From the IMG/VR virus record IMGVR_UViG_3300031088_000759: 64,000 nucleotides of DNA; one strand, written 5' to 3'. The position numbers were made by a program, and so were the translations under genes. Numbering within the stretch: the stretch's first letter is position 1; each line of letters starts with the position of its first letter. Below the pieces are notes generated by a model. That model had not been told where the DNA came from, did not search any database, and saw only the letters and a list, made by a program, of their open reading frames with translations. The DNA is from a virus. Of this stretch, positions 15,481 to 46,810 are shown piece after piece.

Positions 15481-16215
15481 TCAGAACATCTTATTGAAGT
15501 ACTCAGGTGGAACAACCCACATGTTTTCCATTTCATCATCCATTCCTATCACAATACCACTGAAACTTTTGCTCCCGGCAACTCGTGCTGCAGCAAACCT
15601 ATGATTACCATCAATCACATAAGCATTTCCTTTATGTACTAAAACTCTCATAAGACTTGGAGGGTGCCCTTCATCCTCATCATCATAAACAGTAATACTA
15701 TCTGTCTCACCCGTATGAGCATAATAATTGACTAAATCTTCTGAAACGAATTTTTGAACAGTATGTAAAGGAACATTTGTGGAATACCCTTCTCTCACAT
15801 CTTCCACATCAAATTCATCAAATAATTCATCTAATTGTTCAAAACGATAAAAAACACTACCATCATCATTCGTCTCAATATACGCCGTATCATGCTCAGG
15901 AGAAGCAAAAACGATTCCATAATCATCGCTTTGTTTTTCAAAGACATATTCAAAATCTTCTTCATAATACTTATCCAAAGAAAAATCTTCAGGAAGTGAT
16001 AATGTTTTTTCAACATTTGCCTCACGAGAATAGTCTCTTCTATCATTGTGTAAGCTGAACAATATTTGAGAATTCTGTGCTTCTTCATATGCTACTCTAG
16101 CTTCTTCAATAGTTGAATAATGTTCTTCACTGCTTAATTTATACTTACATCCGCCATCTTTTTTAGCTACGCATATGCCAGGATCACCATTTGGTTTGAT
16201 ATGATATTTCTTCAT
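15481..16215 (-). CDS. HCCH-module protein with ParB/Srx-like C-terminal domain
   Basis: N-term KYHIKPNGDPGICVAKKDGGCKYKLSSEEHYSTIEEARVAYE; C-term VLVHKGNAYVIDGNHRFAAARVAG. Confidence 0.75.
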   Translation of the reverse strand: MKKYHIKPNGDPGICVAKKDGGCKYKLSSEEHYSTIEEARVAYEEAQNSQILFSLHNDRRDYSREANVEKTLSLPEDFSLDKYYEEDFEYVFEKQSDDYGIVFASPEHDTAYIETNDDGSVFYRFEQLDELFDEFDVEDVREGYSTNVPLHTVQKFVSEDLVNYYAHTGETDSITVYDDEDEGHPPSLMRVLVHKGNAYVIDGNHRFAAARVAGSKSFSGIVIGMDDEMENMWVVPPEYFNKMF

Positions 16216-16280
16216 GTAGTATTCTCCAATAAAACCTTTTAATAAATGGTTTTTCTAAAAAGCCCAAGAAAGAAAACACA

Positions 16281-16721
16281 GTGAAAACATTACAAATTGA
16301 AACTCCTACTTATGATAGAATTAGAAAAGTTTTTTCTATTATTTACGGAACAGTATTAGCAATTATCTCAGTATATTTATTTCTTATACTCAGCAGCTCA
16401 GGTGAATTCATCAGCTTGAAAACTCTTACCATTATTCTCATAACGCTTATCGTAGGAACAGTAATCCCATATTCAACTTATAGAATTTTAGATAATGCAA
16501 TACATCATGATAAGAACAATTCGCTTCTTGAATATGCCCAACAATTAGAAGCCAAATATAACGTAGCATTCGATAAGCCTCAAAGAGTTTATATTAATCA
16601 GGCAACTGTTTTTCAGAATAAAGAAACTGGAAAAAGATTTTGGGGTGTAGCTACTGTGGATGATGATGGAAAAACACCACTTTTGAAGACCATAGAAGAA
16701 TACAACCAACACTCTGAATGA
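16281..16721 (+). CDS. Membrane protein with 2 TM segments
   Basis: Two hydrophobic stretches; GTG start after AAGAAAG. Confidence 0.7.
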   Translation: MKTLQIETPTYDRIRKVFSIIYGTVLAIISVYLFLILSSSGEFISLKTLTIILITLIVGTVIPYSTYRILDNAIHHDKNNSLLEYAQQLEAKYNVAFDKPQRVYINQATVFQNKETGKRFWGVATVDDDGKTPLLKTIEEYNQHSE

Positions 16722-16833
16722 CTTATTACGTTTTCATTGCTGGAAAAATTTTCTTTTATTTGTTCTCTACGTCATGTCAAGGTTATCAAAAAAATTACGA
16801 TTCTTGATTTATGTCTTTTGCGGTCTATTATTA

Positions 16834-17805
16834 TCAAGTAGCTTTTGCTACAGCTCCCATGAATGTTATCAGACCAAAGATAGATTTAATAAGCAGTACT
16901 ATAATGAACAGAGGACCGTAATAAAGAGCTACCGGCACAAACCGAAAAACAGTCTTTCCAAATTTTTCCTCTTCTAAATATTCTTTTCCTATATTTTTTA
17001 TGTCTTTATGTCGAGAAACAAGCGCTGCTACGAATAAGGTCAATACGGACAATCCAGAGAGAAGGGTTGAAACTATTGTCAAATAAAATATAATGATTTG
17101 ATTATATGGGGTTTCTGGAATTTGTTCTATGCTACCTAAAAGAGGAACAGCATACTGCCAAGAAGCAGCTATGAATAAACCAATGATCAGACCCACTACT
17201 AAAGACAGAACTTTTGGTGTGTACCTGTATTTGTCCCACCACACTCGAACTGAATCAGGATACTCTTCGAGAAACACTTGCCAAGCAATTTTTGAATTAT
17301 GCTGGATCAACTGTGTCATTTCTGGTCTTACACGTTTAGCTCCATCACCGTATTCAAGAATTACTTTTCCTTTGTGTTTCTCTGGTGGTTCTATCCTATA
17401 CTTTGATCTCTTAGGCAGCTTTGCTTTTTGAGGTTTAGGCTTTTTCTCTTTCTTCTTCTGGTTGTTTTCAAAAGTAGATGTTTTTTCCTCATCAGACGAA
17501 TAATCTTGTTCTATATTTGAAGCATTCTGAGCGTTCATCAATTCTCTGTCACGGGCACTATCTACATGTTCCTGGCTCTCGCGTCCATAGCTGCCCTCTG
17601 AGGCGGTTCTCGATGGGTTTACGGGTGTTTGAGTAGCATCCGCATTAAAACCTCTCTGAGAAGGCCCCAGGGGTGTTCTAACAGGGTTTTGAGTAGGCAA
17701 ACCAGAGTTGCTTTGCAGGGAAACGTTTTCAACCTCATCATCATAATTCAAGAACTCTTCAAAGTCAGGTAGAGCATCATCTTTCTCAGTCATAAAAGCA
17801 TCCAT
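16834..17805 (-). CDS. Membrane protein with disordered acidic/polar N-terminus and about 3 C-terminal TM segments
   Basis: Low-complexity N-half; hydrophobic C-terminal helices. Confidence 0.72.
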   Translation of the reverse strand: MDAFMTEKDDALPDFEEFLNYDDEVENVSLQSNSGLPTQNPVRTPLGPSQRGFNADATQTPVNPSRTASEGSYGRESQEHVDSARDRELMNAQNASNIEQDYSSDEEKTSTFENNQKKKEKKPKPQKAKLPKRSKYRIEPPEKHKGKVILEYGDGAKRVRPEMTQLIQHNSKIAWQVFLEEYPDSVRVWWDKYRYTPKVLSLVVGLIIGLFIAASWQYAVPLLGSIEQIPETPYNQIIIFYLTIVSTLLSGLSVLTLFVAALVSRHKDIKNIGKEYLEEEKFGKTVFRFVPVALYYGPLFIIVLLIKSIFGLITFMGAVAKAT

Positions 17806-21614: not shown

Positions 21615-21643
21615 ATTATATCTATATTGGTGTTTCTTGTCAA
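21615..21643 (-). promoter_or_regulatory. Sigma70/SigA-type promoter
   Basis: TTGACA-N17-TATAAT on the minus strand. Confidence 0.75.
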
Positions 21644-21846: not shown

Positions 21847-23103
21847 TTATTTTCGTTTTTCTTCGTTTTCGTAGTAAGGTGAAAAATCCTCATTTGCTAT
21901 CTTTTCCAAATCGTCTTTATCAAACCATCCAAATATTTGATGTTTACCATTTTTTAAGTTAGCTTTCGGAGAGTAATTAATAAAAAACTTAGATTCCCTA
22001 ACGTCTTTTATGTCTGAATCTGCATTACTGCTCAAAGCATAAAGATTTCCATTAGTATTAAGTTTTGTTCGTGTTGGTTCAATGTACTCATCAGCTGCTT
22101 TTTTAGCTACATTACTACGGACTTCTTGTTCTTTAGATTTGCGACTTACATCTCGTTCATCATAGAACAAAGCCCCATTGCTGAAGGGATTGTTGCTACT
22201 TCCTAACCTCAAAGTACCATTGTCATTCGAGTCTTTGACTTTTTTCATCGTAGCAATCATTGCAGGGTTATCAGACACAATAGCTAAGAAGTCGCCACGC
22301 TGAAATTCTCCTTGCGGTGGTTTTATTGAATCTTTTTGTTCACCTTTTTCAAGTTTTACAGCAGCATTCACAAGATCGTCACGTTTAGTAGGAAGAGGCT
22401 TAACTTTACCTTTTAACATTTCACGAAGTTCAGATACTTTCATTCTATTGTACTTCCAGCTAGATTTCATGTCATCGTAGGATCTGTAATTCTTAAAGCG
22501 TTCTAATGCTGTTTCAATTCTTTCTTCTTTGCGCTCATCAGATCTGTATCCATGGCTCCTATCCTCACCAGCAATAACTAATACGCCTTTACCATCTTTC
22601 TCCAAATAAGTTATATCTTCTGGCTTAGATTCTCCATTGCTCAATCTTTTTGAAATTGCCGCTAAACCCCATTCTTCTTCAGCTTTAAAATCAGCTGAAT
22701 AAGTTAATCCAATGACTTTATCATCACTATCTTCTGAGCGAAGAAAACCTATGCCTGCTTCTCTGTTATTTACTTCTAATTCGGACATTTCTTTTAATTC
22801 TTCAGCACTTACTTCTTTAAGCAATTGTTGATAAGTAGTGTCTTTGAATTGTCTTTCATCCCTTGCTTTGAAATCATTCTCTAATTTTTTGATAAGTTTA
22901 TCAGCTTTTTGAACATGATTAGTATAAGGATTCGATTTTTTGAATAATCCAAACATACCTTTTTCTTTAACCATAGATTTTTCGTAAGCTTCTTGTGCTT
23001 CTTCTTTGTTGTTGAAGTGTGAGCCACCCACTGGACAATCTCTCACATCAGCACTACAAGGCTTAGGTCCATTCTCTGTATTGTGAAATTTCGTATTTGT
23101 CAT
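21847..23103 (-). CDS. HCCH-module protein, cargo unknown (about 418 aa)
   Basis: Start reassigned to MTNTKFHNTENGPKPCSADVRDCPVGGSHFNNKEEAQEAYE (AGGAG SD). Confidence 0.8.
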   Translation of the reverse strand: MTNTKFHNTENGPKPCSADVRDCPVGGSHFNNKEEAQEAYEKSMVKEKGMFGLFKKSNPYTNHVQKADKLIKKLENDFKARDERQFKDTTYQQLLKEVSAEELKEMSELEVNNREAGIGFLRSEDSDDKVIGLTYSADFKAEEEWGLAAISKRLSNGESKPEDITYLEKDGKGVLVIAGEDRSHGYRSDERKEERIETALERFKNYRSYDDMKSSWKYNRMKVSELREMLKGKVKPLPTKRDDLVNAAVKLEKGEQKDSIKPPQGEFQRGDFLAIVSDNPAMIATMKKVKDSNDNGTLRLGSSNNPFSNGALFYDERDVSRKSKEQEVRSNVAKKAADEYIEPTRTKLNTNGNLYALSSNADSDIKDVRESKFFINYSPKANLKNGKHQIFGWFDKDDLEKIANEDFSPYYENEEKRK

Positions 23104-23923: not shown

Positions 23924-24871
23924 TCAGAACAGCGTGTTCTCCTCTGTGTCTTCAAAAACTTTGTTACTATCATCCTCATTTAATATAGCTTTCCCATACA
24001 AACGCATATACTCTTCTACTACATCAGCTTTCCCAAAACCTCTTACAGAAGTATTCTTCTCACCCAGTTTATTGAAATCTATATTTTTCAAATTATCTAA
24101 TACTTTTTTATTAGCGCTTTTGAAAAACATCCATTGTTTTTTCCTGTCTAATTTCAAATCGGGAGAGTTAGTCAAAGGTGTAAACTCACCCCAACCTTGA
24201 CGGTACACAGCAAAATCCCAATCATGATCAAACATCCACAAAGCGGAGGGAACACAGTTGTATATAAACATTTCAAAATCTTCATGTTTAGTAGGTGGTG
24301 CTGTGTAGATTCTATAATCTACCAAATTCGTATCAGTGATAGGCAATTTAGTCCACACTTGAAAAACACAGCGTACAGAATACGCTTTCCCCTCAAAAGT
24401 AAATGAATCAGGATTGATAACCTCATTTACAACAAGCCTTGCGTATTTATCAATATTCTTCATAGTTAAATATTTCATAAACTGAATAGGCAATATGAAA
24501 GCCACCGTATCAGAATACTCAAATGCTTTCTCAATAAAGTCTAATGCTAATTGACTACGCTTACCAAAAGGTGGATTACCTATGACTACTAACTCTTCTT
24601 TGCCAGGAAAATTTTCAAATATTCTTTCTACATCATCATCAATAAAATCAGCATATTCTATTTCGTCTCTCTGAGGGTCAATGTCTGTGCCAAAAATTCT
24701 ATACCCTCTATCATGAGCAGCATCTATGAAGCTTCCCCCACCAGCTGAAGGTTCAAGAAAAGAAACCTTGTTATAGTTTAATGATTCTAAAACAGGCTTT
24801 AATACATCAATGCACTCACCCGCCATTTTTTCTGTGGTAAAAAACTGGTCCAACTCTTTTGCTTTACTCAT
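23924..24871 (-). CDS. N6-adenine DNA methyltransferase, complete (gamma-type motif order)
   Basis: LDQFFT, FLEPSAGGGSF (motif I), VIGNPPFG (motif IV), AFILP. Confidence 0.82.
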   Translation of the reverse strand: MSKAKELDQFFTTEKMAGECIDVLKPVLESLNYNKVSFLEPSAGGGSFIDAAHDRGYRIFGTDIDPQRDEIEYADFIDDDVERIFENFPGKEELVVIGNPPFGKRSQLALDFIEKAFEYSDTVAFILPIQFMKYLTMKNIDKYARLVVNEVINPDSFTFEGKAYSVRCVFQVWTKLPITDTNLVDYRIYTAPPTKHEDFEMFIYNCVPSALWMFDHDWDFAVYRQGWGEFTPLTNSPDLKLDRKKQWMFFKSANKKVLDNLKNIDFNKLGEKNTSVRGFGKADVVEEYMRLYGKAILNEDDSNKVFEDTEENTLF

Positions 24872-24926
24872 TCTTTCTCCAAAGATTTTTGTATGTACAA
24901 AGAAATCTTATCAAAATATTGCAGAA

Positions 24927-26072
24927 TCAGTCTTTTTCCAGACCTTCTTTATACCATACATTATAAGAGCCAGTTCCCATTTGTAATTTACTTGGGATAC
25001 GAATCAACTCATCAGTATTGTAGTTCTTCTTATTCACAATCTTTAAAGAACCATCTGGGTTTTTAATAGCATAAGTACTATTTTTATTATTGAAAAGAAC
25101 TTTTAAGTATTTTTGACCATCTGTTGTCGTAAATTCATAAGACAAACGCGCTGTATCTGTTCCAGAATTCACAACAGCAGTAACATTCCACTGCTCATCT
25201 TCACTGAGAGAAATTTCTGTTTCGCTAATGTATCCTTTGCCATCGTTCTGCCTGAAATTAACAATACTATAATCTTTTACTTGTTGGCTATTTCCTTTTT
25301 TCCCGCTGCTTTTTACGATATCATAAATTTCTTGAGAATTAACTGTATGATTCTTAGAATTAAAATCCTCAGCATAGGTTCTCATCTTCGCATCAAGTTT
25401 TTGAATTACGGCAGCTTCATCCTTGCCACCCTCTTTACTGTAAATATTCAACAATTCTAATTTTTCAGAGTTATCTAACGTGAAAGCGTCTGCGTTGATA
25501 AGAGATGACACTCTTTGAATCCCCGCTGCTGAATTAGTAGCAGCACCAAACTTAGTTTCCAAGTTCATTACATTTTCATCATTTGCAATAACTACAAGAT
25601 CACTATCAGCGCTATTTCCACCACTATTTCCTGATTGAATGGAAAAATTATCAGAACCTATCTTTTCAGCGGTTAATTTTCTTAAAGATTGTTTCCATTC
25701 ACTAAGGATTTTTTCTATTTCTTCTTCTTTCAGTCCACGTAGTGCTACAACTCTTTGAGAATCATTTATTTGACTAATATTTTTCGCAATAACTTTTATG
25801 TCTGATCCAGTGGCAACTGCTTCTTCGCATAAATTAGTCACTAACGATACATTAGAGCCAAAAACTTGAGTATTCTGCTTGACAATTTTTTTGACTAATT
25901 TAGGCGTTCCAACTTTTTGCTGCAAAAGGTTTTCTGCGGCTGAAATTGCTTCTTGTTTTGAAGAATAGTGTGTGCGTTCAGAATTATCTTCATCTCGAAA
26001 CAAGCAATTTCCTGGCTGAGCTCTACATATTCCAGCACGCATAGTATCTGGATTAATGTGATATCTTGACAT
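24927..26072 (-). CDS. HCCH-module protein with putative PD-(D/E)xK restriction-like nuclease cargo
   Basis: N-term RYHINPDTMRAGICRAQPGNCLF...HYSSKQEA; ADSDLVV...MNLETKFG resembles D-x(n)-ExK; directly upstream of a DNA MTase. Confidence 0.55.
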   Translation of the reverse strand: MSRYHINPDTMRAGICRAQPGNCLFRDEDNSERTHYSSKQEAISAAENLLQQKVGTPKLVKKIVKQNTQVFGSNVSLVTNLCEEAVATGSDIKVIAKNISQINDSQRVVALRGLKEEEIEKILSEWKQSLRKLTAEKIGSDNFSIQSGNSGGNSADSDLVVIANDENVMNLETKFGAATNSAAGIQRVSSLINADAFTLDNSEKLELLNIYSKEGGKDEAAVIQKLDAKMRTYAEDFNSKNHTVNSQEIYDIVKSSGKKGNSQQVKDYSIVNFRQNDGKGYISETEISLSEDEQWNVTAVVNSGTDTARLSYEFTTTDGQKYLKVLFNNKNSTYAIKNPDGSLKIVNKKNYNTDELIRIPSKLQMGTGSYNVWYKEGLEKD

Positions 26073-27660: not shown

Positions 27661-28974
27661 TCAACTTAAACTTCTGTTACGAGCAATCCAGTAGCCCATA
27701 ATCCATCTTCTAACTTCATCCGCACTATCACCACGTGATGAGCCATATAAATAAGAATTAGAAGAAGGATAATAAAAACCTTCAGAAGCTCTTGTCAAAA
27801 GTTCTCTACCATTGTAAAGACCCATATACTCATCAGGAAAACCTTTATAGCACTTAACACTTAAAGATTCATCAAAGTATTCTTCTTTTTTCAGCTTCGC
27901 AAACATTTGTGATTCAGCAAAAGTGTTATCCTCTAACTGAACTAGATGAACATATTCATGCAGTAGAACACTTGATTCAGCGTTGTTTGTATAATCTTTC
28001 TTCGCAAGAATCACGCTACCTTGAAGGAATTTTGTGTCTTTTATTTCATACATAGGCTTGTCAATAGTTTGTAATTTACCATTGAAATGTACTTTTGAAC
28101 TGTCAGAAATCTTTTTTCCCCGAGATTTTGTTGATAAACCTTCTCCAATCCATACTTCATCATAGATATCCGAGTCAGCACGTTTGACTTTAGCACGTGA
28201 ACCCCAACCTTTGCCCATCTCATCTTTATACACGAAATCTCTAATATAGACAGTTCCGTCCTCTAAGTCTTTTATCATTTCACGCTCAATCTCACCAATT
28301 TTTGCCCCACTTGATTTAACAGACACACCAAACGAAGTATTGCCAGAATGTTGTCCATCAAACTTATTGTTGTCTATACGAGTAGCTTTAGCAAGAATAG
28401 GAGTTCCTGATAAACGCTTTTTAACACTGTTAGGCAACACTTCCACGGCTTTATTCAGCTGCTTAGACAAACTTCCATAAACATCATTAGATAGTGATTC
28501 TCCAGTGGTTGTAAGCTCATTCATAAGCTTATGTGTTTCCTCTTCCACTGTTTTAAGCTGCTCTTGACTGAGTTGTTGTTCGAAAATGTCAAAAGAAACA
28601 CGTTTACTCAGTTCTTCATCAAAAATTTCGCCAATTTTCACTAAATTATCTGGTGAAAAATTTTTTAAATAAGAGACAAACTTGTCAACATCAGAAGAGG
28701 AAATATTAATGTTCTCATTAAACAATTCATCAATTTTTGATTTTAAAATTTCAACATCTTTTCTTGCGTTCTTGTTTGAGCCTTTCTTCACAGTTGTGGT
28801 TACACTGTTTTTCTGTGAAAGTCTAGTTTCAGCAACTTTCACTGCTTCTGTGAAATTTTCATAGTGAGATTCAGTACCACCAAATCTACATTCTCTTAGA
28901 GTAGCATTACACGGTTTAACCTCATCGTTACTATTAATGTGAAACTTTTTTAGTTTAGCCATGATTTTTATCAT
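27661..28974 (-). CDS. HCCH-module protein with HEXXH zincin-like metallopeptidase cargo
   Basis: KFHINSNDEVKPCNATLRECRFGGTESHYENFTEA; C-term VLLHEYVHLVQ and downstream RELLTRASEG; start could be 28962. Confidence 0.68.
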   Translation of the reverse strand: MIKIMAKLKKFHINSNDEVKPCNATLRECRFGGTESHYENFTEAVKVAETRLSQKNSVTTTVKKGSNKNARKDVEILKSKIDELFNENINISSSDVDKFVSYLKNFSPDNLVKIGEIFDEELSKRVSFDIFEQQLSQEQLKTVEEETHKLMNELTTTGESLSNDVYGSLSKQLNKAVEVLPNSVKKRLSGTPILAKATRIDNNKFDGQHSGNTSFGVSVKSSGAKIGEIEREMIKDLEDGTVYIRDFVYKDEMGKGWGSRAKVKRADSDIYDEVWIGEGLSTKSRGKKISDSSKVHFNGKLQTIDKPMYEIKDTKFLQGSVILAKKDYTNNAESSVLLHEYVHLVQLEDNTFAESQMFAKLKKEEYFDESLSVKCYKGFPDEYMGLYNGRELLTRASEGFYYPSSNSYLYGSSRGDSADEVRRWIMGYWIARNRSLS

Positions 28975-31283: not shown

Positions 31284-32546
31284 TCAGAAATCATCAACGC
31301 TTAAATCAGGATGATTATCTACCCAAGAAGTTGCCTGGTTTGTACGAACTGATGGATTAGAATGAGGATAAAGATCACTTAACTTGTCAATTTTATACTC
31401 TCTTGATTTTTCATCATATTCTTTATTAATCTCTTGAACCTTTACAGAAGCTTGAGATTTATCTGCTTGTGTAATATTTTCAGCATCTTGAATCTTTCTA
31501 TCATTTCTTAAATAATCATTGTTAAAACGATTTATGCTATTCTCAATATTGGTTTTCTGACGTTTCCTGCCGGATTGCGACAAACCTCTATATTCAGGGT
31601 TCTTATCAAAAACAAAACCTTTCTTATTATTGGACTTTTCATAATCTCTTATCTCATGTAGTTTTTCTACTGCTTCATTACTGCGCTTAAGCAAAACTTT
31701 ATTGGCTTTCTCTAATCTTTGTATCTCTTTATCGTTGTTGATAATTTTGTTCAACTTTTTAATTCTGTTTGAAGGATCAGAAGGTTTAACAGCTTTATTT
31801 GTAAGATTATTGTTTCGCTTAGGCTTATCATCCATTGTTATTGAAGTAGGAATAGAAGCCCAGTCAGGAAGCTCCGGGTTAGAAGCTTTGGAATGATACG
31901 GTTCGTACTTATCAAACTCTTTCAAACCTTCTAAATCGTCTTGAAATTCATCAGGGACTCGATAACGACTTCTTGTATAACTGTCATCATTGTAATAGCC
32001 AGCAATTGTTAAAGTAGAGTCTACATGTTCATCAATATTTACATAATCATGGTCTAAATATGTGTAAGCATCATCATAAGAATAGTCTATATTATTATCT
32101 TCATCATAAGGAACAGCAGCATATTGTTCTACTATAAGATATCCATCACGATCCAAAGCTACATAAGTGCCATAATCGTTAAAGCCTGGGATTCTGTCTA
32201 AACCAATAGTTTGAGCGATATCTTCTTTTAGTTTCTCTTCTTTACCGTGATGTTGATTATGCACATCATTAATGTATTTTCTGATTTCAGATGCTTTTTT
32301 GCCTCTCAATTCTCCAAAACCAATTACATCAGTGTCAAAAACATGATTATCAATATCATATGTTCTATTCTTTGGCTTTTTCAAAGGTTTTTGAACAGTT
32401 TGAGAATTCATTGTTTTCTCATATGCTGATTGTGCTTCTTCTTTTGTCGAAAAATGTTCTGATTCATCCAGACCTAATCGACATTGGATTTTAGCATCAC
32501 ATTTACCGGCACGCCCTGTTTCCTTGTTAAAGTGGTATTTCGCCAT
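31284..32546 (-). CDS. HCCH-module protein, cargo unknown (acidic aromatic region plus coiled coil)
   Basis: MAKYHFNKETGRAGKCDAKIQCRLGLDESEHFSTKEEAQSAYE; AGGAG SD. Confidence 0.82.
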   Translation of the reverse strand: MAKYHFNKETGRAGKCDAKIQCRLGLDESEHFSTKEEAQSAYEKTMNSQTVQKPLKKPKNRTYDIDNHVFDTDVIGFGELRGKKASEIRKYINDVHNQHHGKEEKLKEDIAQTIGLDRIPGFNDYGTYVALDRDGYLIVEQYAAVPYDEDNNIDYSYDDAYTYLDHDYVNIDEHVDSTLTIAGYYNDDSYTRSRYRVPDEFQDDLEGLKEFDKYEPYHSKASNPELPDWASIPTSITMDDKPKRNNNLTNKAVKPSDPSNRIKKLNKIINNDKEIQRLEKANKVLLKRSNEAVEKLHEIRDYEKSNNKKGFVFDKNPEYRGLSQSGRKRQKTNIENSINRFNNDYLRNDRKIQDAENITQADKSQASVKVQEINKEYDEKSREYKIDKLSDLYPHSNPSVRTNQATSWVDNHPDLSVDDF

Positions 32547-32590: not shown

Positions 32591-33991
32591 TCAGTTAACA
32601 GCTAAAAAGTTTTTAGGCATTTTTGGAGCTGGTTCGTCATAAACCCATCCTGATTCCCAAACTTTACGACGTTCTTCTTCTATTTTGTTTCTATATATTG
32701 CTACTGAATTAAAATTGTTCTCATAAGAATTTTCTATCATTTTAAAAGGTTTAGCAAAATCCTCTAAATCTCTTGAGCCACTTTCGAGTAAGTATTTGTT
32801 AGACTTTAACTCGTGCCCTAGCACACTACCTCTTTCATATGTTCTTTTAACAGTAACGTTTCTTCTTCCTTTTTTCTCCGTAGCATTGTAACTAGCAGTT
32901 CCACGATCAGCAAGTAAATATTCTTTCAATGCTGAGCCATCTTCTAAAAGCTCAGCCTCTTTATAAGCATTCTCCAAAACTTCATACTCTCTGATTTTTC
33001 TATGCGCATCTTTTACTTTGTCAAGATCGTACTTACTATACCTTTTATTATAACTATTAAATTTTTGAACTTCTTCTAATGAAATATTATCAAAATCCTT
33101 GTTCTCTAGCTTGCTTAGTATAGCACCAGCAGCATCAGCTATTTCTTTGTCATTTTTTACACGCTGTATAGCATTTTCATAACTTTGCTTTGAATCACGA
33201 TACTTATCCATATTTTTTCTGTAATCTTCAACATTATTGATAAACCAAGCAGGTGCTTTTCCATCTTCTATCAAAGATCTTTCGTTTTTAAGATGAGTAT
33301 AGTTCTTATTTTTCTCATAATCAGAATGGTACTTATCAAATTGTTCTTTTGTAATTTTATTGTCAAAAACAAAGTAATTGTATGTTGAATCAAAATCATC
33401 ATCATAATCAGTAACATAATTTGGATGTTCAGAAGTAATCTCATTGTTCAGAGCTAAACAACCATCTTCATGGCTATCATAATCCTCGCAATAGCACTCT
33501 CTGTTTCCACCACCTTGACGTGCTGAAACTATGACTACATATTCTGAATCAGGATGAAAGCTGTCTTTGCTAACATTGTATGGTTCTTCTTTAACTAAAT
33601 CATCTATTTTTTCAAAGAAGGTTCCACGAGGTCTCATAACATATGATGACTCCACGAGATAATCATCAGGTGAAACATCTAAAGGTTCCTCGATTTCTCC
33701 TTTCTCAACCTTGTTCAATAACTCATAATGTTTATTCCAAGCACTGACTAGTTTCTTTCTGTTTTCCTGTGAAATACCCGATAAATCAACGTTAACACCG
33801 GAAAGGTTTTGAGAAGTAGAAGCTTTTTGTTTCTTAACAACTGTTGAAAGATTTTGAGTTTCTTCAAAAGCTTTTTGTGCTTCTTCTCTAGTTTCAAAAT
33901 GCTCGGATTCTGTCAAACCTAATCGACATTGCACCTGTGCTTTACATAAACCTGTTTTTCCAGTGTCTCTATTGAAGTGATATTTCGCCAT
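32591..33991 (-). CDS. HCCH-module protein, cargo unknown
   Basis: MAKYHFNRDTGKTGLCKAQVQCRLGLTESEHFETREEAQKAFE; cargo has ARQGGGNRECYC...HPNYVTDYDDDFDSTY. Confidence 0.82.
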   Translation of the reverse strand: MAKYHFNRDTGKTGLCKAQVQCRLGLTESEHFETREEAQKAFEETQNLSTVVKKQKASTSQNLSGVNVDLSGISQENRKKLVSAWNKHYELLNKVEKGEIEEPLDVSPDDYLVESSYVMRPRGTFFEKIDDLVKEEPYNVSKDSFHPDSEYVVIVSARQGGGNRECYCEDYDSHEDGCLALNNEITSEHPNYVTDYDDDFDSTYNYFVFDNKITKEQFDKYHSDYEKNKNYTHLKNERSLIEDGKAPAWFINNVEDYRKNMDKYRDSKQSYENAIQRVKNDKEIADAAGAILSKLENKDFDNISLEEVQKFNSYNKRYSKYDLDKVKDAHRKIREYEVLENAYKEAELLEDGSALKEYLLADRGTASYNATEKKGRRNVTVKRTYERGSVLGHELKSNKYLLESGSRDLEDFAKPFKMIENSYENNFNSVAIYRNKIEEERRKVWESGWVYDEPAPKMPKNFLAVN

Positions 33992-34089: not shown

Positions 34090-34183
34090 GTTTTAGAAAA
34101 AATTCTTCAAAAAACAGAAATACACCCCGAAAAAGACTGGTATAATCTTTGTTTTTCGAGGTGTATTTCTAAGCCGTTTTCAG
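34090..34183 (-). repeat. Conserved intergenic hairpin element, copy 3
   Basis: 19-bp stem 34116-34134/34152-34170 with one G.U pair on the minus strand, 17-nt loop; flanks gttttagaaaaaattctt and aagccgttttcag. Confidence 0.65.
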
Positions 34184-34320
34184 TTGTTGGATATAGTTAA
34201 TTTTTTATCTAATGCTACAGCTTCTGCTTCATCTTTATTACTATAATGAACGCCAGGAGCATAGCAATCCCAGGTATTCTTACAAAAAACAACTTTATTA
34301 AGATTGTCAATATGGTACAT
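34180..34320 (-). CDS. Stand-alone HCCH module, 46 aa, no cargo (not in ORF track)
   Basis: Hand translation MYHIDNLNKVVFCKNTWDCYAPGVHYSNKDEAEAVALDKKLTISNN; GAGGA SD just upstream. Confidence 0.8.
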   Translation of the reverse strand: MYHIDNLNKVVFCKNTWDCYAPGVHYSNKDEAEAVALDKKLTISNN

Positions 34321-34392
34321 TTTTATCCTCATTTTTCAACTCTACAAGAAATACAACCTTCATCTTATCTAAAACGAAAACTTTATTAAACA

Positions 34393-35334
34393 TTAGACAA
34401 ATTTCAGAAAACTTACACTATCATGCAAACCTTGAAAAGTTTGATAACCACAGTTATTGTATTCTCTCTCTACTACACCTTCAGAAATGTCTTTCTCCAA
34501 CTGATCCCAGAAAGCTTCTGAACCAGTACAACCACCTTGATCTTCACCAATATTAACAATCTTAATATGAGGATATTCCTTTTTCACAAGATCATAAACT
34601 TCTTTATCAATTTTCCCATCCATAGGTGCCCAAGACATTACTACATGTGTTATATCTTTGCCATACTTCTTCAAACTCTTCACAGCATCAAGATTTTCTA
34701 TTCCATCATCCGTCTGAACCTTTCCCCAAGACTTATCATCACTCCCAATAGTCTTCACCCCCTCATCACGCATTGCTTTTACCAGGTACCCTTTGCCTGC
34801 CATCGGATCTAAAACAATAGGATCAGAACCACCTAAATCATCTTTCATCTTTTCTTTAAGATTTTTACTAAACCTTTTTGTTATCTTAGCGAAATACCCA
34901 GCATCTTGACAATAAATATGAACAGTCATGCCTAACATGCTTGCATCATAAGAAAATCTTGGAGGAACTTCATCAGGAATATTCCCATTTGAAAAATCTT
35001 CGACAAATTTCTTCTCTACCTCATTAAAAGAGTTAATTTCACGTCCAAAAGATAAGAATTCAGACATTCTTTCAAAGTCTTCAAAAACTTCCTCTGCTTT
35101 CTTGTTTGGCGAAATAACAATAGGAGACAAGAGACTACTCGTGAAACTTTTCTCAACCTTTTTTACTACTGGAAAAGACTTTGTGTTCATAGAATTTTCA
35201 AAAGCAAGTTGTGCTTCTTCACGAGTTTTAAAATGCTCATGGAAATCAGACTTCGTTGCTTTGCAAGTTTCAGGTGTTTTAGCTTGACACCTTCTTGGTA
35301 CACCATCTCTACTAATATGGTATTTTGCTGTCAT
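34393..35334 (-). CDS. HCCH-module protein with SAM-dependent methyltransferase-like cargo
   Basis: KYHISRDGVPRRCQAKTPETCK...HFKTREEAQLAFE; VLDPMAGKGYL, VMSWAP, IGEDQGGCTG. Confidence 0.65.
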   Translation of the reverse strand: MTAKYHISRDGVPRRCQAKTPETCKATKSDFHEHFKTREEAQLAFENSMNTKSFPVVKKVEKSFTSSLLSPIVISPNKKAEEVFEDFERMSEFLSFGREINSFNEVEKKFVEDFSNGNIPDEVPPRFSYDASMLGMTVHIYCQDAGYFAKITKRFSKNLKEKMKDDLGGSDPIVLDPMAGKGYLVKAMRDEGVKTIGSDDKSWGKVQTDDGIENLDAVKSLKKYGKDITHVVMSWAPMDGKIDKEVYDLVKKEYPHIKIVNIGEDQGGCTGSEAFWDQLEKDISEGVVEREYNNCGYQTFQGLHDSVSFLKFV

Positions 35335-35382
35335 CTGAAACCCCTTTTTGAAATATTTTTAAACTTTATGATTCACTTCTTT

Positions 35383-36462
35383 TCACGATTCTTTTGTGAA
35401 ATCCTCATAGGAAATCGGTGTTGGTTGCGAACCTTCATTGTCAAAAATGAGAGGTTTTTCTGTGAATACACCCATCTTAGTTAATTGAGCAATGTTTTCA
35501 GCATTTTTTGAACGGTATTTACTTCCAGGTTGTGTAGCTTGTGATTCTATTATAGAAGATGGCAAATACCTTCCACCTAAGCCTTTTCCGTTTGTAGCGT
35601 AATCGTTCAAGCCAGAAGCATATCTTTGACCAGCGCGTTTTACAGATGTTTTAGGGTCTACATCAATAAAAATAGCTTTTATATTGTTGTATCCTCTATG
35701 TTTTATATCTTCTGTCTTTTCTGTAACACTCCATGCTTTGTTCATAGTCATGTCCATAATAATATTAGAACGCTGAGAAACTAACTTTTCAAAAATCTTA
35801 TCTGTGAGGTCTAATGATTCTTCGTGAATAAGTGCTGAAGCTTCCATAGGTGTTAAACCTTTTACTTCTGGGACCATACCTTTTTCGGCCATTATTTCTT
35901 TAATGTCATCAGCACTTAAAGAAACATAATCTTTCTGATCTATTTCAACATAGTTCTTGATAATGGTTGACTTTCCGGCACCTGCTAATCCACCTGAAAA
36001 GATAATTTCACCATTGTTTTTTGCTATGTTCGATTGTACCATGAATTCTTCAATAATTTCTTCTTGCTGTTTTTTGCGTTTATCTGAGTAATTGTAATAC
36101 CCGTAAGAGGCATTAGCATAATTATTCTCATCACTAGGTGGTGCGTTGCGCATTTTTGAAATTGCTTCTGAAACATACTCTTTTCTTTCGGCAAGTTCGA
36201 TACCAGTTAGGGATCGTTTGCTCAATCTTGCTTCTTCAAGCATTCTTTGCTGATGTTCTGCTTTTTCCTCAAAAGTATTATTGTTCTTTTTTACTAATGG
36301 CTTAAAAGTATTGAATGTTTGTTTCAATTCGTATGCTGATTGAGCAGCTTCAATTGTAGAATAGTGCTCTTTTAAATCTTGTGTAGTTGCTTTGCATGTT
36401 TCAGGTGATTTAGCCTGACATTTTCTTGCTACACCATCTTTACTAATGTGGAATTTGCTCAT
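35383..36462 (-). CDS. HCCH-module protein with zeta-toxin-like P-loop kinase cargo
   Basis: KFHISKDGVARKCQAKSPETCK...HYSTIEAAQSAYE; GGLAGAGKST, SADDIKE, IHEES, NIIMDMTM, IFIDVD...RAGQRY, GRYLP. Confidence 0.8.
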   Translation of the reverse strand: MSKFHISKDGVARKCQAKSPETCKATTQDLKEHYSTIEAAQSAYELKQTFNTFKPLVKKNNNTFEEKAEHQQRMLEEARLSKRSLTGIELAERKEYVSEAISKMRNAPPSDENNYANASYGYYNYSDKRKKQQEEIIEEFMVQSNIAKNNGEIIFSGGLAGAGKSTIIKNYVEIDQKDYVSLSADDIKEIMAEKGMVPEVKGLTPMEASALIHEESLDLTDKIFEKLVSQRSNIIMDMTMNKAWSVTEKTEDIKHRGYNNIKAIFIDVDPKTSVKRAGQRYASGLNDYATNGKGLGGRYLPSSIIESQATQPGSKYRSKNAENIAQLTKMGVFTEKPLIFDNEGSQPTPISYEDFTKES

Positions 36463-36522
36463 TTTTACCTCATGTTTGATACTTTTATTGACTAATCTTA
36501 TTTCTAATAATATTGCAAAATA

Positions 36523-36560
36523 AAGAACAAAGACAAAACTTGAATCTTGTCTTTGTTCTT
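36523..36560 (-). terminator. Terminator-like hairpin between the HAD and zeta cargo genes
   Basis: Perfect 14-bp IR. Confidence 0.6.
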
Positions 36561-36593
36561 ATCTTTTTAAATCAAGGCAACGAAGCTTATGAA

Positions 36594-37490
36594 TCAATCT
36601 CGAATGATAAGTGAGGCTTCTACTGATGATTCTGTTTCTTCACTAGGGTCAACAAGAGTTGAATGGTGAGAGTTATCAAATAGCGGCTTATCACTGGTTG
36701 TGTCACCAAATGCTAAAATCCTTTTGAACCTGTTGATTCCCAGTTTTTCAATGTAGCCTTGTTTTGCTTTTCCGCCGAACATACCTTCAATCATACCGTT
36801 GAGAGAACCATCTTCATCAGTAAGGTATTCACTACCCTTACCAAAAAACCCATTTCGTTCGGCAAAAGGCTGAACAAGGAAGTTTGGGGAACCACTGATA
36901 AGCTGAATTTCCCATCCACGACGCTTAAACTCTTTCAACTGATCCATAGTTGAATAGAATTGATTATCGTTTTGTTCATAACCATCTAAGAATTCTTCTA
37001 CTTTAAGATCTTCGATTTTCATACCATGAATCTGTTCACGATACTTTTCAGCAAGTTTCACAATAACTTTTTCGTTTTTTGGGTTTTTCTTCCATTTTTT
37101 AGGAAGATTGCCCAAATCAATTGCTCCGCTATCATGAAGATAAATAGCATGGTCAAGAACTAATGAGCCACGAGTCAAGGTTCCGTCAACATCAGAAAGA
37201 ACGGCATATTTTGCTTGAGGGTCATGTGGGACCTCAATTTCTTCTGGTGTAATAGAGAATTCTCTATCCTTGTATTCTTCTTGTACACGTGGACGTTCGT
37301 TTTCAGGAACGTTTTCAATACTCTTGTTAACACCATCCAAAGGGTTGTTCATTTCATTCATATATTTTTCATAATTTTCACGAACTTCTTTTTCGGATTC
37401 ACCATGAGCTACTACATCAGAAAGTCTGCACTGTTTCTGAGCTTTACAAATAGAAGGTGTTCCATCTTTACTAATATGCCAATTCGTCAT
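36594..37490 (-). CDS. HCCH-module protein with HAD-IB (SerB-like) phosphatase cargo
   Basis: Start MTNWHISKDGTPSICKAQKQCRLSDVVAHGES; SDVDGTLT, LISGSP, K, AFGDTTSDKPL. Confidence 0.82.
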   Translation of the reverse strand: MTNWHISKDGTPSICKAQKQCRLSDVVAHGESEKEVRENYEKYMNEMNNPLDGVNKSIENVPENERPRVQEEYKDREFSITPEEIEVPHDPQAKYAVLSDVDGTLTRGSLVLDHAIYLHDSGAIDLGNLPKKWKKNPKNEKVIVKLAEKYREQIHGMKIEDLKVEEFLDGYEQNDNQFYSTMDQLKEFKRRGWEIQLISGSPNFLVQPFAERNGFFGKGSEYLTDEDGSLNGMIEGMFGGKAKQGYIEKLGINRFKRILAFGDTTSDKPLFDNSHHSTLVDPSEETESSVEASLIIRD

Positions 37491-37694
37491 AAACTCTACC
37501 TTTGTTAAATATATTCTATCATAAGCTTTTCTAAAAACATTTGAAAACAATGCTATATCATCAAAAAAACTTATTCTACAACAGTATCAATTTCGGTTAA
37601 TGATAGCACATAAAATTCACAAAAGTCAAAAACTTAGCATTACTTAACTTATCTCATCTACAGTGCTAAATATCTTTTATTTTGAAATTTACAC

Positions 37695-38414
37695 TCAGAA
37701 AAACTTTGGCAAAGATACAGGATTTCTTAATGAGTTATTTTTCCAATTGTACACTAACCAGGCAGTTCTTCCGTTTCCGTCAACAAAGCCATGAATCCAT
37801 AATTGTTGTTTTGTGAATTCCTCAGCAGTTAATTGATCACCATATTCATAAAGATTGAACATTAATCTTTCAACATCATTATGGTTTGCTGAACTTCCTC
37901 CAGAAACAAAAGTCACAGGAGTTGAACGATATTTTCCTCTATTATCCGGTTCAACAACACCAGCTAATTTTTCAATATATTTATAATCAATAGGAACATT
38001 ATTCTGTGAATCTTCAGAAAACTTATTATATCCTTCAATCAATGTTTTAGCTCGCTCAACACCAACACTCTGTTTCACACATTCTTCCATAACTCTGTTC
38101 ACAACATTCGCTGGATTGTCAGTGTGTTTTTTATTGACATCTGAAATTAATTCTTTATGAATACGTGAATCTGACAATTCAGCGTATTTTTCATCAGTGG
38201 TATTTTGCCTTAGAGATTTCATAGTTTCTTTATCAAAAGTTGAAACTGAGGATATTGTTCCATAATCATTTGACAACATATTTTCTAATTTTAAGGATGC
38301 TTTACTCTTATTTTCGAAGTGAAGTTCAGTGTTGCTTACGGGGCAGTTTCCGGGTTTAGCATTGCAAATCCCTACTTCTTTTGTCTCATTGTTTATATGA
38401 TATTTTGTAGCCAT
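37695..38414 (-). CDS. HCCH-module protein with Fic/Doc domain cargo
   Basis: KYHINNETKEVGICNAKPGNCPVSNTELHFEN; GKYRSTPV; IHGFVDGNGRTAW. Confidence 0.82.
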   Translation of the reverse strand: MATKYHINNETKEVGICNAKPGNCPVSNTELHFENKSKASLKLENMLSNDYGTISSVSTFDKETMKSLRQNTTDEKYAELSDSRIHKELISDVNKKHTDNPANVVNRVMEECVKQSVGVERAKTLIEGYNKFSEDSQNNVPIDYKYIEKLAGVVEPDNRGKYRSTPVTFVSGGSSANHNDVERLMFNLYEYGDQLTAEEFTKQQLWIHGFVDGNGRTAWLVYNWKNNSLRNPVSLPKFF

Positions 38415-43973: not shown

Positions 43974-45317
43974 TCAGATGTAACCATATTTCGAGCTACA
44001 TGAGGGCCAAGCTCCCCATCCTTGCATGCTTTGTAATTGAACACCTGTGGCAATTTGCTCCTCACGAGTTGCCAAATAAGCTTCAGGTGCATACTTACCT
44101 CCACCAGCAGCTAACCAGCTGGACCTTGTGAACTGAATACCTCCAGTGAACGAATTACCAGTATTAATTGACCAATTTCCACCACTTTCACATTGTGCTA
44201 ATTGGTCAAATCTATCAATCTTCCACTGGGGAATACCAGACAACAAACCAGAACCATTTCCTGAAGATCTTGCTTCAACCTTAGAAGACGAACTACTAGA
44301 CTCATTTGATTCAGATTTGTTTGATGATGGTTTACTAGAAGACTCTTCAGCTTTTTTCTCAGAAGAAGAATTGCTTGAAGAAGACTTAGGTGCTGAAGTA
44401 GCATCACTAGAAGATTCAGTCTCTACCTTTTTCGGTTCTACTTCTTCAACCACAGGAGCTGGCTTCTTCTTAGTTCCCTTAGTGGTAACCTCATTCACAG
44501 GCTTTTTAGTTACTTCTTCTTTAATTACTTCAGATTTTGTAACTTTTTTATCAACCTTGGTATCTTTGATAGTTTTTGTGAGAACCCCATTTACCCCTTT
44601 AGTAGTTACTTTCTCTTCACCTTCAAAAAGGTCTTCTGATTCTACTGTTGTCTTCTTAAAGGGAATAGATTCAGTCTCTACTCTTTCATCATTACGTGTT
44701 CTTACTATTTCTACTGTTGTATCACTTGTCAAAAGAGTTTCGCGCCCTGGTGTCAAAGTATCACGTTCAGGGTCATAGTTAGACAAATATTCATCAGCTA
44801 CTTCTCCAATTGTTTTATGGAAAACATCTTCTGCTGTGTATTCTCCATACATACCTTTGAAGGTTACTGAGTATGGTGTATCAATAGTGATGTGAGTTGT
44901 TTTTCCTGGGACTAATTCTGTGTCCATTGAAGGTGAAACTTTTTGTTTAGTAATTTCATATCCATTTTCCGCTAATACTTGTTCAATGTTAGCAGCATCA
45001 GTATGCAGGGTTACATTTTCGTAGCTACCATCAATTGTTATATTGACTGTGGCTAGCTGTTCGATAATGATTTTATTATCGTTTGTGCTTATTTCTTGGT
45101 TTAATGCGGGTGTTACCTTTTCAGCTTTTTCAATTTGTATTCCCTGTTTGTCAAGAATTTCATCAACATTCTTGTCAAAAGTTCTTACCTTTGTTATTTC
45201 CCCATTATTATCAATGTCAACTTCATTAGATAGGCCGAATGCTGTTGCAGCTCCACCACTTGATAGAGCAATAACAACCCCTGCTGCTATCCCGAATATA
45301 CGTTTCTTTCTCTGCAT
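43974..45317 (-). CDS. rpfB: Resuscitation-promoting factor, RpfB architecture (signal/TM, DUF348-like repeats, G5, Ser-rich linker, Rpf transglycosylase)
   Basis: G5 segment ESIPFKKT...VTTKGVNG...KKPVNEVTTKGTK; catalytic FDQLAQCESGGNWSINTGNSFTGGIQF...WGAWPSCS. Confidence 0.9.
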   Translation of the reverse strand: MQRKKRIFGIAAGVVIALSSGGAATAFGLSNEVDIDNNGEITKVRTFDKNVDEILDKQGIQIEKAEKVTPALNQEISTNDNKIIIEQLATVNITIDGSYENVTLHTDAANIEQVLAENGYEITKQKVSPSMDTELVPGKTTHITIDTPYSVTFKGMYGEYTAEDVFHKTIGEVADEYLSNYDPERDTLTPGRETLLTSDTTVEIVRTRNDERVETESIPFKKTTVESEDLFEGEEKVTTKGVNGVLTKTIKDTKVDKKVTKSEVIKEEVTKKPVNEVTTKGTKKKPAPVVEEVEPKKVETESSSDATSAPKSSSSNSSSEKKAEESSSKPSSNKSESNESSSSSSKVEARSSGNGSGLLSGIPQWKIDRFDQLAQCESGGNWSINTGNSFTGGIQFTRSSWLAAGGGKYAPEAYLATREEQIATGVQLQSMQGWGAWPSCSSKYGYI

Positions 45318-45486
45318 CTCATCTCCAATATGTCTTTTATTTCGGCAATTTTAAAAGTGTCCTTGAACAATATCTCGCAAAATGATTAAAAAACAGGTTT
45401 TACACCTCTTAAATGTGCTTTGGATTACATTTTTTAATGCCTCTTTTTCAAGATTTTAAGGTTTCTTGAACTTTGCTCCGGACACG

Positions 45487-45529
45487 GGAAAGCGCAACAG
45501 TAAATTTTTAAACTACTGTTGCGCTTTCC
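45487..45529 (-). terminator. Terminator-like hairpin
   Basis: Perfect 16-bp IR. Confidence 0.65.
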
Positions 45530-45598
45530 TTAAATATTTAATTTTCAATACAAACTATTCTATCAAATTTTATTTTTAATTTTAATTTTAATGAAAAA

Positions 45599-46810
45599 TC
45601 ATCCGCTACTGTCAATTTTTCCTACGAACACACCTGTTTCAGGGTTATATGTAGCACCTGCATTGTATCCACCACCGAATAATGCTTCAACATCAGATTT
45701 AGTAAAACCATGCTTATCAATCTTCTGTTTGTCTAATTGCACTTGTTCAGCATAATATGAAGTTCCCAATTTATTTGATACAACTTCTTTTTGCTTAAGC
45801 TCAGATTTAAGCTCCGCAACAGAAGTTGTTCCAGTAGCACGTTGCATCTTTCCTATACTTGCAACTCGTGGGAAAGCACCTTCAAGCTCTTGCTTAATCT
45901 TTTCGTTAGTGTTTTTATGGTAATAGAATTGTTCTACACTATTCCCAGCTGCTCCACTTCGCACTATCTTTTCAATTGTTTTACTTGGCAAGTTTTTATT
46001 TTGTACAACTTTATCCCAATTACTATTTGGCAATTCTGGGCTACGCTGAATCATTTCATCAACATATCCGTCAATAACTTTTTTATTGCTAAGGTGAGGG
46101 AATCTTGTGTAAACCTGTGCCTGTAATTCATTGTCATTGAGCTTCTTCAAACTGTCAGTGCCATAATACCCTTTATTAATCGCTTCTGTTATAAGATATG
46201 GTTCACTATTGATTACCTCATCTCTTTTTTCATCGCTCAATTTGTTATTCATATTAAACGCTAAAGCTGATAGTGTTTTTATCTCTCTTGCTGATAACTT
46301 CTGAATCACGCTAGCTTTTTCATCATCAATAGAATCATCTCCAGCAATTCTTACTCGCTCTTCTGCTCCCGCGAAATATTGTCTCATAACAGGCAAAATC
46401 TGATGTTTTGTCAAGTCTTCAACAGGATAGTTCTTGTGCTTTAAAATAGATTTTGATTCTTCAGAGTTAGGTGTTGAAGTTTTGTAAAGTTCACGAAGAG
46501 CTTCAGGTCCAGTATTGTGATTCGAAACAACAGAAGCACGAACACGAGAACTTCCTCTTTGTGCAGCATCTAAAAGAATAGTTTGATCATCAGTGAATTT
46601 TGCTACCTTGTTGAGTTTAGACGCACTTAGCTTGCCAGCATTTTTTACACCCTCAGGAACAATCTCTTCGACCATTTTCTTTTCATATCCTGCACGTGCT
46701 TCTTGTGCTGTGTCATAATGTTCTTCCTCAGAAGCATTAAACCTACACTTGTGAACAGCATTACATATTCCCGGTTCACCTTTATCATTAACGTGATACT
46801 TAGTTGCCAT
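45599..46810 (-). CDS. HCCH-module protein with helical-repeat (LRV/HEAT-like) cargo
   Basis: KYHVNDKGEPGICNAVHKCRFNASEEEHYDTAQEARAGYE; repeats such as RVRASVVSNHNTGPEALRELY and VVQNKNLPSKTIEKI. Confidence 0.72.
   Translation of the reverse strand: MATKYHVNDKGEPGICNAVHKCRFNASEEEHYDTAQEARAGYEKKMVEEIVPEGVKNAGKLSASKLNKVAKFTDDQTILLDAAQRGSSRVRASVVSNHNTGPEALRELYKTSTPNSEESKSILKHKNYPVEDLTKHQILPVMRQYFAGAEERVRIAGDDSIDDEKASVIQKLSAREIKTLSALAFNMNNKLSDEKRDEVINSEPYLITEAINKGYYGTDSLKKLNDNELQAQVYTRFPHLSNKKVIDGYVDEMIQRSPELPNSNWDKVVQNKNLPSKTIEKIVRSGAAGNSVEQFYYHKNTNEKIKQELEGAFPRVASIGKMQRATGTTSVAELKSELKQKEVVSNKLGTSYYAEQVQLDKQKIDKHGFTKSDVEALFGGGYNAGATYNPETGVFVGKIDSSG

Follow-up and report, generated by a model that had tools for sequence, protein, structure and literature searches.

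Several systems are known in which one constant element is joined to many otherwise unrelated proteins. In phage T4, a short unstructured peptide, the capsid-targeting sequence, stands at the N-terminus of the internal proteins IPI-III and of the ADP-ribosyltransferase Alt, is removed by the prohead protease, and gives its proteins one common destination. In the cellulosome, the dockerin, a small calcium-binding docking module at the C-terminus of many unrelated extracellular enzymes, engages a single receptor, the cohesin. Polymorphic toxins (LXG, Rhs, CdiA) combine a constant N-terminus with hypervariable enzymatic C-termini that are exchanged by 3' cassette replacement (PMC3482391), whereas polyvalent proteins and MuF-toxin fusions combine many domains used against the host on entry (zeta kinase, ADP-ribosyltransferase [ART], nucleases, methyltransferases, and peptidases) within a single very large polypeptide that is tethered to a virion head protein (PMC5512222). 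Finally, the very large Bacillus phage G displays a lineage-specific expansion of a small zinc domain, a stand-alone zinc ribbon in ~35 copies, thought to function as transcription factors or DNA-packaging proteins (PMC7824862). Here, we analyze a 64-kb stretch of DNA (hereafter, the window) from the virus record IMGVR_UViG_3300031088_000759, which is part of a 727,572-bp phyllosphere metagenome contig (ENA ERZ27247443, k141_1824502) with a GC content of ~34%, and describe a family of genes in which a ~48-residue N-terminal module with conserved His, Cys, Cys, and His residues (the HCCH module, or head) is followed by unrelated C-terminal regions (cargos).

The HCCH module in the window

Twelve copies of the module, all on the minus strand, are located between 15.4 and 46.8 kb of the window. 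A profile hidden Markov model (HMM) trained on 147 family members was compared with the six-frame translation, that is, with every stop-to-stop frame of the 64 kb, and matched 12 loci exclusively, precisely the open reading frames (ORFs) that a sequence-only reading of this DNA had singled out as sharing an N-terminal HCCH module. Eleven copies, matched with E-values of 1e-14 to 1e-23, head longer proteins; the twelfth, the weakest match (34183-34335; E 5e-4), is a cargo-free copy of 46 codons. All 12 translated ORFs share the opening M-x-K-[YFW]-H, with a cysteine ~9 residues further on, and the predicted ligands are spaced H-x9-C-x5-7-C-x5-11-H. In the alignment of the 12 ORFs, H, C, C, and H are invariant, the alanine after the first cysteine and the EA..A.E helix are nearly so, and the second histidine is usually followed by the helix motif [YF]-x-[ST]-x-E-E-A-x-x-A-[YF]-E. 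For two genes, the start codon was reassigned, from TTG at 23130 to ATG at 23103 and from TTG at 37550 to ATG at 37490; both ATG codons are in frame, have a Shine-Dalgarno motif upstream, and are the likely starts. With these starts, the module lies at the extreme N-terminus in every copy.

Each cargo is joined to its head via a short Lys/Ser/Thr-rich linker. In BLASTP comparisons (E<=0.01), the 11 cargos, taken from residue 56 to the C-terminus, resemble neither one another nor any other gene of the window, in agreement with the earlier claim that the C-termini diverge completely. The module is, then, a discrete, conserved N-terminal domain with one variable cargo per gene and many copies per element, and the window is an unusually dense array of such genes. 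The 12 genes are no more than a candidate for one joint 'system'.

A confident AlphaFold2 (AF2) model of the module, built from a 147-sequence alignment (pLDDT 83), consists of two strands (positions 4-7 and 13-16), a loop in which the second cysteine lies, and a helix (35-50) that starts just past the second histidine. The invariance of the four ligands across the 147 sequences makes metal binding plausible, most probably of one zinc ion. The module is probably a zinc-binding mini-domain of hairpin-loop-helix architecture that is new to the libraries. It does not qualify as a classical zinc ribbon or treble clef: the ligands are single residues instead of CxxC-type knuckles, and no such structure is among the fold matches. 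Comparison with the PDB (Foldseek, VIA-align) returned noise only (E>2, Z<=3.1), and the rows obtained, among them the Kunitz/BPTI domain and the Ada N-terminal zinc domain, were rejected as homologs. The only good structural matches were ctHip2 proteins and viral clusters of the ESM-Atlas: at least 10 proteins of the uncultured 'Siphoviridae sp. ctHip2' share the module fold, one of them a zeta toxin, and the ESM-Atlas clusters sharing the fold are labelled 100% viruses, Uroviricota.

The sequence-only reading had also likened the conserved helix to the AP2 and RNase H1 N-terminal domains. A short strand-helix motif is indeed shared, but the likeness does not extend to the fold, with TM values of 0.45-0.49 in the Atlas structural rows for resemblance of the AP2, RNase H1 N-terminal, or DUF2188 type. 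DUF2188 and the RNase H1 N-terminal hybrid-binding-type domains are similar to the module in size and in the combination of a strand and the helix-cap motif [FY]-x-[ST]-x-E-E-A; unlike the module, they are devoid of the His/Cys ligands. Homology to DUF2188 was rejected, given that hhalign against 15 DUF2188 sequences yielded 19% probability over 14 columns.

The module family and its carriers

When 1.84 billion representative proteins (50% identity clusters) were searched with the profile, 5,382 matched the module at E<=1e-3, 842 of them at E<=1e-10. Close inspection covered 156 sequences, the alignment 147, and the analysis of best matches 149, of which 142 have a cargo region. In 153 of the 156 proteins, the module starts no later than residue 10, 2-3 modules occur in tandem in 8 of the 156, and 14 of the 149 best matches are nearly head-only (<=110 residues). 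Across the 147 aligned sequences, H, C, A, C, H, and A are invariant, and the first residues follow the stereotyped pattern M-[A/T/S/P]-[K/R]-[Y/F/W]-H. The net charge of the module is -0.4 +/- 2, and its conserved helix (EEA-R-x-A-Y-E) is acidic. At 12-17 residues past this helix, hydrophobic residues and Ser/Thr/Pro are followed by a Lys-rich patch, with K at 20-30% of positions, and about half of the members have a basic pair after the module.

The cargos of these relatives are no less diverse than those in the window. The 142 best cargo-bearing matches fall into 113 unrelated BLAST clusters, and the family as a whole joins the head to hundreds of unrelated C-terminal domains. The sequence-only reading had named a lack of cargo variability elsewhere as an argument against itself; given the large variability outside the window, this argument does not apply. 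Pfam recognizes Zeta, ART, 2H-SAK phosphoesterase, GmrSD_C nuclease, GNAT, HEAT/LRV, and SPOR domains among the cargos, and ~90% of the cargos lack any Pfam domain. In one relative (P0116, residues ~55-80), the head precedes a lipoprotein-signal-like segment (KK, a hydrophobic stretch, and I-S-A-C) and a DUF1524/GmrSD_C-like motif; this protein may be a cytoplasmic head fused to an exported nuclease, or the product of a mis-called start.

The sequence-only reading did not recognize the module as a named Pfam family, and the library searches bear this out: the module region has no match above threshold in Pfam-A 2025, NCBIfam 20.0, PHROGs v4, or the PDB sequences. The best library score was to DUF2188 (E 0.015), in one of the 12 members, and the PHROG matches of headed proteins are restricted to the cargo regions. 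Furthermore, neither tblastn of a 65-aa family member nor megablast of 20 kb of the window found a match among INPHARED phages or PLSDB plasmids. In a scan of IMG/VR, 597 stretches fitted the sequence pattern, none of which was confirmed, and no paper describing such a module was found in the literature searched. Thus, the domain family is new to the libraries searched, and it is real, large, and unannotated. It deserves a database entry. The head groups proteins that could not otherwise be classified into one functional class.

A scan of GTDB genomes retrieved a single locus, in a metagenome-assembled genome (MAG) labelled Pararhizobium that contains 19-20 module copies on about a dozen small contigs, with tandem arrays recurring. 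No copies were detected in 300 other genomes of the same phylum, and we take the module-bearing contigs of this MAG to be a mis-binned element. Among what was searched, the module is restricted to giant phage-like elements. In addition to the 727,572-bp contig of the window, a relative occurs on an 828,236-bp contig (JGI Ga0540622_0000002) with a GC content of 56%. Should each of the two be one phage genome, both would rank with the largest on record; the literature that we consulted goes up to 841 kb (bioRxiv 10.1101/2025.01.14.633092). Neither contig turned up in the IMG/VR pattern scan.

On other contigs, the genes near family members encode a T4-type RNA ligase (Rnl1), polynucleotide kinase (PNK), CCA-adding enzyme, and Thg1, as well as NAMPT, PRPP synthetase (PRS), NMNAT, PnuC, a split DnaE with an intein, a clamp loader, SIR2, and NERD, a repertoire of jumbo-phage auxiliary genes. 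Judging from these genes and from the labels of the relatives, the assignment of the carrier to giant phages is well supported; it is not proven, because no capsid, portal, or terminase gene is present in the DNA examined. Sigma70-like promoters are enriched (105 observed vs 75 +/- 9 expected). The enrichment includes the region that holds nine headed genes, and one such promoter precedes the gene for a HAD phosphatase. Shine-Dalgarno motifs precede many genes of the window and, together with the sigma70-like promoters, led us to reject a eukaryotic giant virus as the carrier. A full-length RpfB and mycobacteriophage-like zeta domains hint at an actinomycetotal (Actinomycetota) host.

In giant phages of 0.7-0.8 Mb, the genes are almost entirely without assigned function. 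A single recognizable head, present on dozens of genes in each genome and across thousands of protein clusters, offers a handle on this gene content. The recognizable cargos (zeta kinase, Fic, ART, phosphoesterases, and nucleases) suggest a rich source of host-modifying and counter-defense activities.

Possible functions of the head

The logic of a constant N-terminus with variable enzymes is already known, and the HCCH genes depart from polymorphic toxins, the T4 system, MuF and polyvalent proteins, and dockerins in a defining feature of each. As in T4, a constant N-terminal element is found on unrelated phage proteins that include host-modifying enzymes. In contrast to the T4 peptide, the HCCH head is folded, ~48 residues long, probably zinc-binding, and sometimes tandem or alone, and it shows no sign of cleavage or packaging. 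The cargo types are those of polyvalent proteins, but each HCCH gene has one cargo behind a small head, and no link to MuF or to a head protein of the virion was seen. With polymorphic toxins, the HCCH genes share variable C-termini on a constant N-terminus; unlike in these toxins, there are no intervening immunity genes in the tandem array, the head is a cytoplasmic-type zinc domain, and the carrier is phage-like. No Pfam domain indicative of polymorphic-toxin trafficking or of a linked secretion system was detected in the 11 headed proteins or the other genes of the window. Dockerins resemble the head in being small metal-binding modules on many unrelated enzymes, whereas the HCCH heads are N-terminal and have no known cohesin-like receptor. 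The zinc ribbons of phage G are, by the description in that paper, not heads of diverse enzymes.

The reading that we favor, and that we consider about equally likely to be right or wrong, is that the head is a protein-protein docking handle on enzymes of host takeover or counter-defense, all with one common partner. Through the head, a changing set of enzymes (kinase, AMPylase, phosphatase, ADP-ribosyltransferase, probable nuclease, among others) would gather at this shared partner, either inside the host cell or on the particle that infects it. Protein docking is favored over DNA binding because the net charge of the module is close to 0 and its best-conserved exposed feature is an acidic helix. 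The tandem heads of eight relatives and the near head-only members argue for a binding domain rather than a cleavable signal. The genomic setting also speaks for docking, as headed genes lie among genes of nucleotide metabolism and host takeover, where sites resembling host-type promoters are plentiful and at least one of them precedes a headed gene.

The head sequences show how the family grows. The closest pairs of heads are physical neighbors in the window (31284/32591, 69% identity; 34393/35383, 60%), yet no relationship exists between the cargos within a pair, and other elements contain separate orthologs of each cargo, attached to the same head subtype. New members arise when the head and its expression signals are duplicated and the 3' part is replaced. 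These head duplications and cargo swaps occurred well before these elements diverged.

Several points weigh against docking as the function of the head. No docking partner was found, and zinc binding is inferred from conservation. The N-terminal position could be a by-product of diversification, in which the promoter, ribosome-binding site, and head are kept and the 3' part is swapped. The label 'effector enzymes' is extrapolated from ~10% of the cargos, given that most cargos have no assigned function. The identification of the carriers as phages relies on labels assigned by other groups and on gene content, with no capsid, portal, or terminase gene seen in 64 kb of the 727-kb contig or in the related loci. 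The head points to one missing partner; to identify it would be to understand the way in which these phages put their enzymes to use.

In a more specific and more tentative version of the docking reading, the head would serve as an address label, read by a single receptor, in a megaphage effector-sorting system not described before. This receptor would belong to the capsid or ejection apparatus, or to a phage-built structure in the cell. If so, every headed protein would be part of an injected or co-localized host-takeover arsenal, and for thousands of giant phages that have never been cultured, this arsenal could be read directly from the sequence. A head that serves as a docking or loading tag would, moreover, be a portable tool for reuse.

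Among the alternatives, the most serious, which we regard as possible but doubtful, is that the head is a tag for loading into and ejection from the virion: it would dock to the capsid, scaffold, or portal, so that the enzymes are packed and enter the host with the DNA. The strict N-terminal placement is compatible with such a tag, as is the overlap between the kinds of cargo (zeta kinase, ART, nuclease, and methyltransferase-like) and the domains of injected polyvalent proteins, and the zeta cargo matches a segment of a PHROG annotated as 'minor head protein'. The absence of immunity genes between the tandem genes is likewise expected of host-directed weapons. Furthermore, the module helix ends in a conserved A-[YF]-E, which loosely resembles S/A/G-x-E, the cleavage site of giant-phage prohead proteases. 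However, neither the window nor ~130 kb of related loci examined contains a structural or protease gene, and tandem and stand-alone heads would be odd for a cleavable tag, as would a folded 48-residue domain in place of a short peptide. The enrichment of sigma70-like promoters, including the one before the HAD gene, suggests early-type transcription by the host RNA polymerase, which also argues against loading.

It is improbable, in our estimate, that the head is a nucleic-acid anchor, a small zinc finger tethering repair or modification enzymes to DNA, RNA, or tRNA. Some cargos do act on the ends or bases of nucleic acids (PNK-like kinase, 2H-SAK, GmrSD-type nuclease, and HAD, as in T4 Pnkp), the headed proteins include a probable nuclease paired with a methyltransferase, and tRNA-repair genes are among the neighbors. 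Roughly half of the members have a Lys-rich patch past the head, the Ada N-terminal zinc domain is matched by Foldseek in a weak row, and the head has the motif [FY]-x-T-x-E-E-A in common with DUF2188 and RNase H1 hybrid-binding-like domains. Against this, the hhalign comparison with DUF2188 stayed at 19% over its 14 columns, the structural rows are insignificant throughout (Z<=3.1, TM<0.5), the module is near-neutral with a conserved acidic helix, and the Fic, HEAT/LRV, and SPOR cargos have no obvious use for such a tether.

Least probable of all is a unit of stability, timing, or regulation, such as a metal- or redox-sensitive switch or a handle for Clp machinery of the phage or the host that sets the lifetime of potentially toxic enzymes. 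The head would be retained because cargo swaps leave the promoter, the ribosome-binding site, and the head itself in place. A ClpB/ClpC-type ATPase in the window, ClpS near HCCH genes in related elements, the stereotyped N-terminus (with a conceivable relation to N-end-rule recognition), the toxicity of many cargos (zeta, Fic, ART, nuclease) when unregulated, and an S-x-x-x-E-N helix in the head of the Fic fusion, the pattern of the Fic inhibitory helix, would fit such a unit. This support is entirely circumstantial, the N-terminal aromatic residue and Lys probably have a structural role in strand 1, and a single regulatory head is unlikely to suit hundreds of unrelated folds.

Cargos and neighboring genes

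The sequence-only reading had assigned enzymatic activities to most of the cargos. Pfam confirms the zeta kinase, the HAD phosphatase, and Fic, whereas ParB/Srx, PD-(D/E)xK, HEXXH peptidase, and the SAM fold rest on short motifs, and the helical-repeat cargo on a weak match. The eight cargos without an assigned fold yielded nothing credible in Pfam and NCBIfam at weak thresholds; in particular, those of the genes at 15481, 27661, 34393, and 24927 have no Pfam match even at E<=5 and no NCBIfam match.

The three confirmed enzymes are encoded next to each other. The gene at 35383..36462 encodes a 359-aa protein with a zeta-toxin/AAA_33-type P-loop kinase as cargo (Pfam Zeta_toxin, 1.8e-19), which has PHROG matches to polynucleotide kinase in addition to the minor head protein segment; its nearest cultured relatives are in Mycobacterium phages. 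The headed HAD phosphatase (298 aa, 36594..37490; Pfam HAD, 1.9e-8; phrog_23509, 7.6e-31) has its own sigma70-like promoter (37629-37600) and a terminator (36560-36523), and is 78% identical to its ortholog in L002-L004. The headed Fic protein (239 aa, 37695..38414; Pfam Fic, 3.2e-6) contains the motif HGFVDGNGR. In this protein, the head helix (residues ~38-45) has diverged to S-L-K-L-E-N, which fits [ST]-x-x-x-E-[GN], the motif of the Fic inhibitory helix, and the head might double as an auto-inhibitor in this fusion.

These genes close a tandem array that spans 31284-38414, with gaps of 44-213 nt; a further head copy is the sole small ORF within it. The array opens with a 420-aa protein (31284..32546; module E 1.5e-23) that has orthologs P0020 and P0080, followed by a 466-aa protein (32591..33991; module E 2.4e-20) with ortholog P0081 and no recognized cargo family. 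The small ORF, the cargo-free 46-codon module (34180..34320), is preceded by a GAGGA Shine-Dalgarno motif and retains all four ligands. Next to it, a 313-aa protein (34393..35334; module E 5e-17) has a SAM-methyltransferase-like DPMAGKG motif in its cargo, the only indication of this activity, and a PHROG match to phrog_19090, a family without assigned function.

A conserved gene pair is located outside the array. The 381-aa headed protein encoded at 24927..26072 (module E 1e-15) has an invariant D...E-x-K in seven orthologs, and the gene directly downstream (23924..24871, minus strand) encodes a module-free, N6-adenine-type DNA methyltransferase with EPSAGGG and NPPF motifs and a weak match to the Eco57I Pfam family. 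The methyltransferase gene occupies this position in four independent elements with rearranged surroundings (window 23924-26072; L002 3881-5977; L056 5748-7900; L058 6001-7875), and its product is 62-72% identical to those encoded right after the 24927 ortholog in L002, L056/L057, and L058. An AF2 model of the cargo based on the seven orthologs (pLDDT 73) retrieved from the PDB only noise-level rows (Z<=4.5), the best of which, to Dna2, a Cas4-family protein, MspI, and HinP1I, have Z 3.5-4.3 or probability 0.13. From its conserved residues, the cargo may be a nuclease. The pair looks like a restriction-modification module, in which the head would be carried by the putative nuclease alone; on the methyltransferase side, both the SAM and catalytic motifs and the conserved adjacency are those of a type II system.

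Four headed proteins are encoded elsewhere in the window. The first (244 aa, 15481..16215; module E 9e-20) has a DGNHR motif near the C-terminus, the one ParB/Srx-like feature, and an ortholog, P0135, with 65% identity in the cargo. The second (418 aa, 21847..23103; module E 2e-14) starts at the reassigned ATG at 23103, with AGGAG 6 nt upstream, and has no family match. The third (433-437 aa, 27661..28974; module E 6e-15) likewise has no family match and is distinguished by the motif HEYVH near its C-terminus. The fourth (403 aa, 45599..46810; module E 1e-21) has a probable helical-repeat cargo with a weak LRV match (E 0.011) and represents the most widely conserved cargo family, with orthologs P0002-P0006, P0063, and P0155. 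The gene of this type adjoins an RpfB gene both here and in L001.

The RpfB gene (43974-45317) encodes a full-length protein (DUF348, G5, and Rpf transglycosylase domains) on this 34% GC element. Large proteins composed of DUF4379 treble-clef zinc-finger repeats are encoded at 4533-6362, 7731-9983, and 41455-43725, with 7, 7, and 2 copies of the repeat, respectively; the last of these is 72% identical to the product of an L001 gene that lies beside the orthologs of RpfB and the 45599-type gene. No tRNAs or Rfam families were detected in the window. Perfect or near-perfect intergenic promoter sequences of the form TTGACA-N16/17-TATAAT are located at 21615-21643, 27519-27547, and 30696-30723, which suggests that the host RNA polymerase with its primary sigma factor transcribes much of the region. 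The ClpB/ClpC-type protein mentioned above (924 aa, 54726-57500) is a double AAA+ ATPase, the first ~220 residues of which have no Pfam match, and the ClpS genes lie a few kilobases from HCCH genes in L056 (701-1045) and L058 (954-1298). In L022 (12152-16575), the DnaE-type polymerase is split by a Hint/intein insertion, with the clamp-loader gene located between the two parts.

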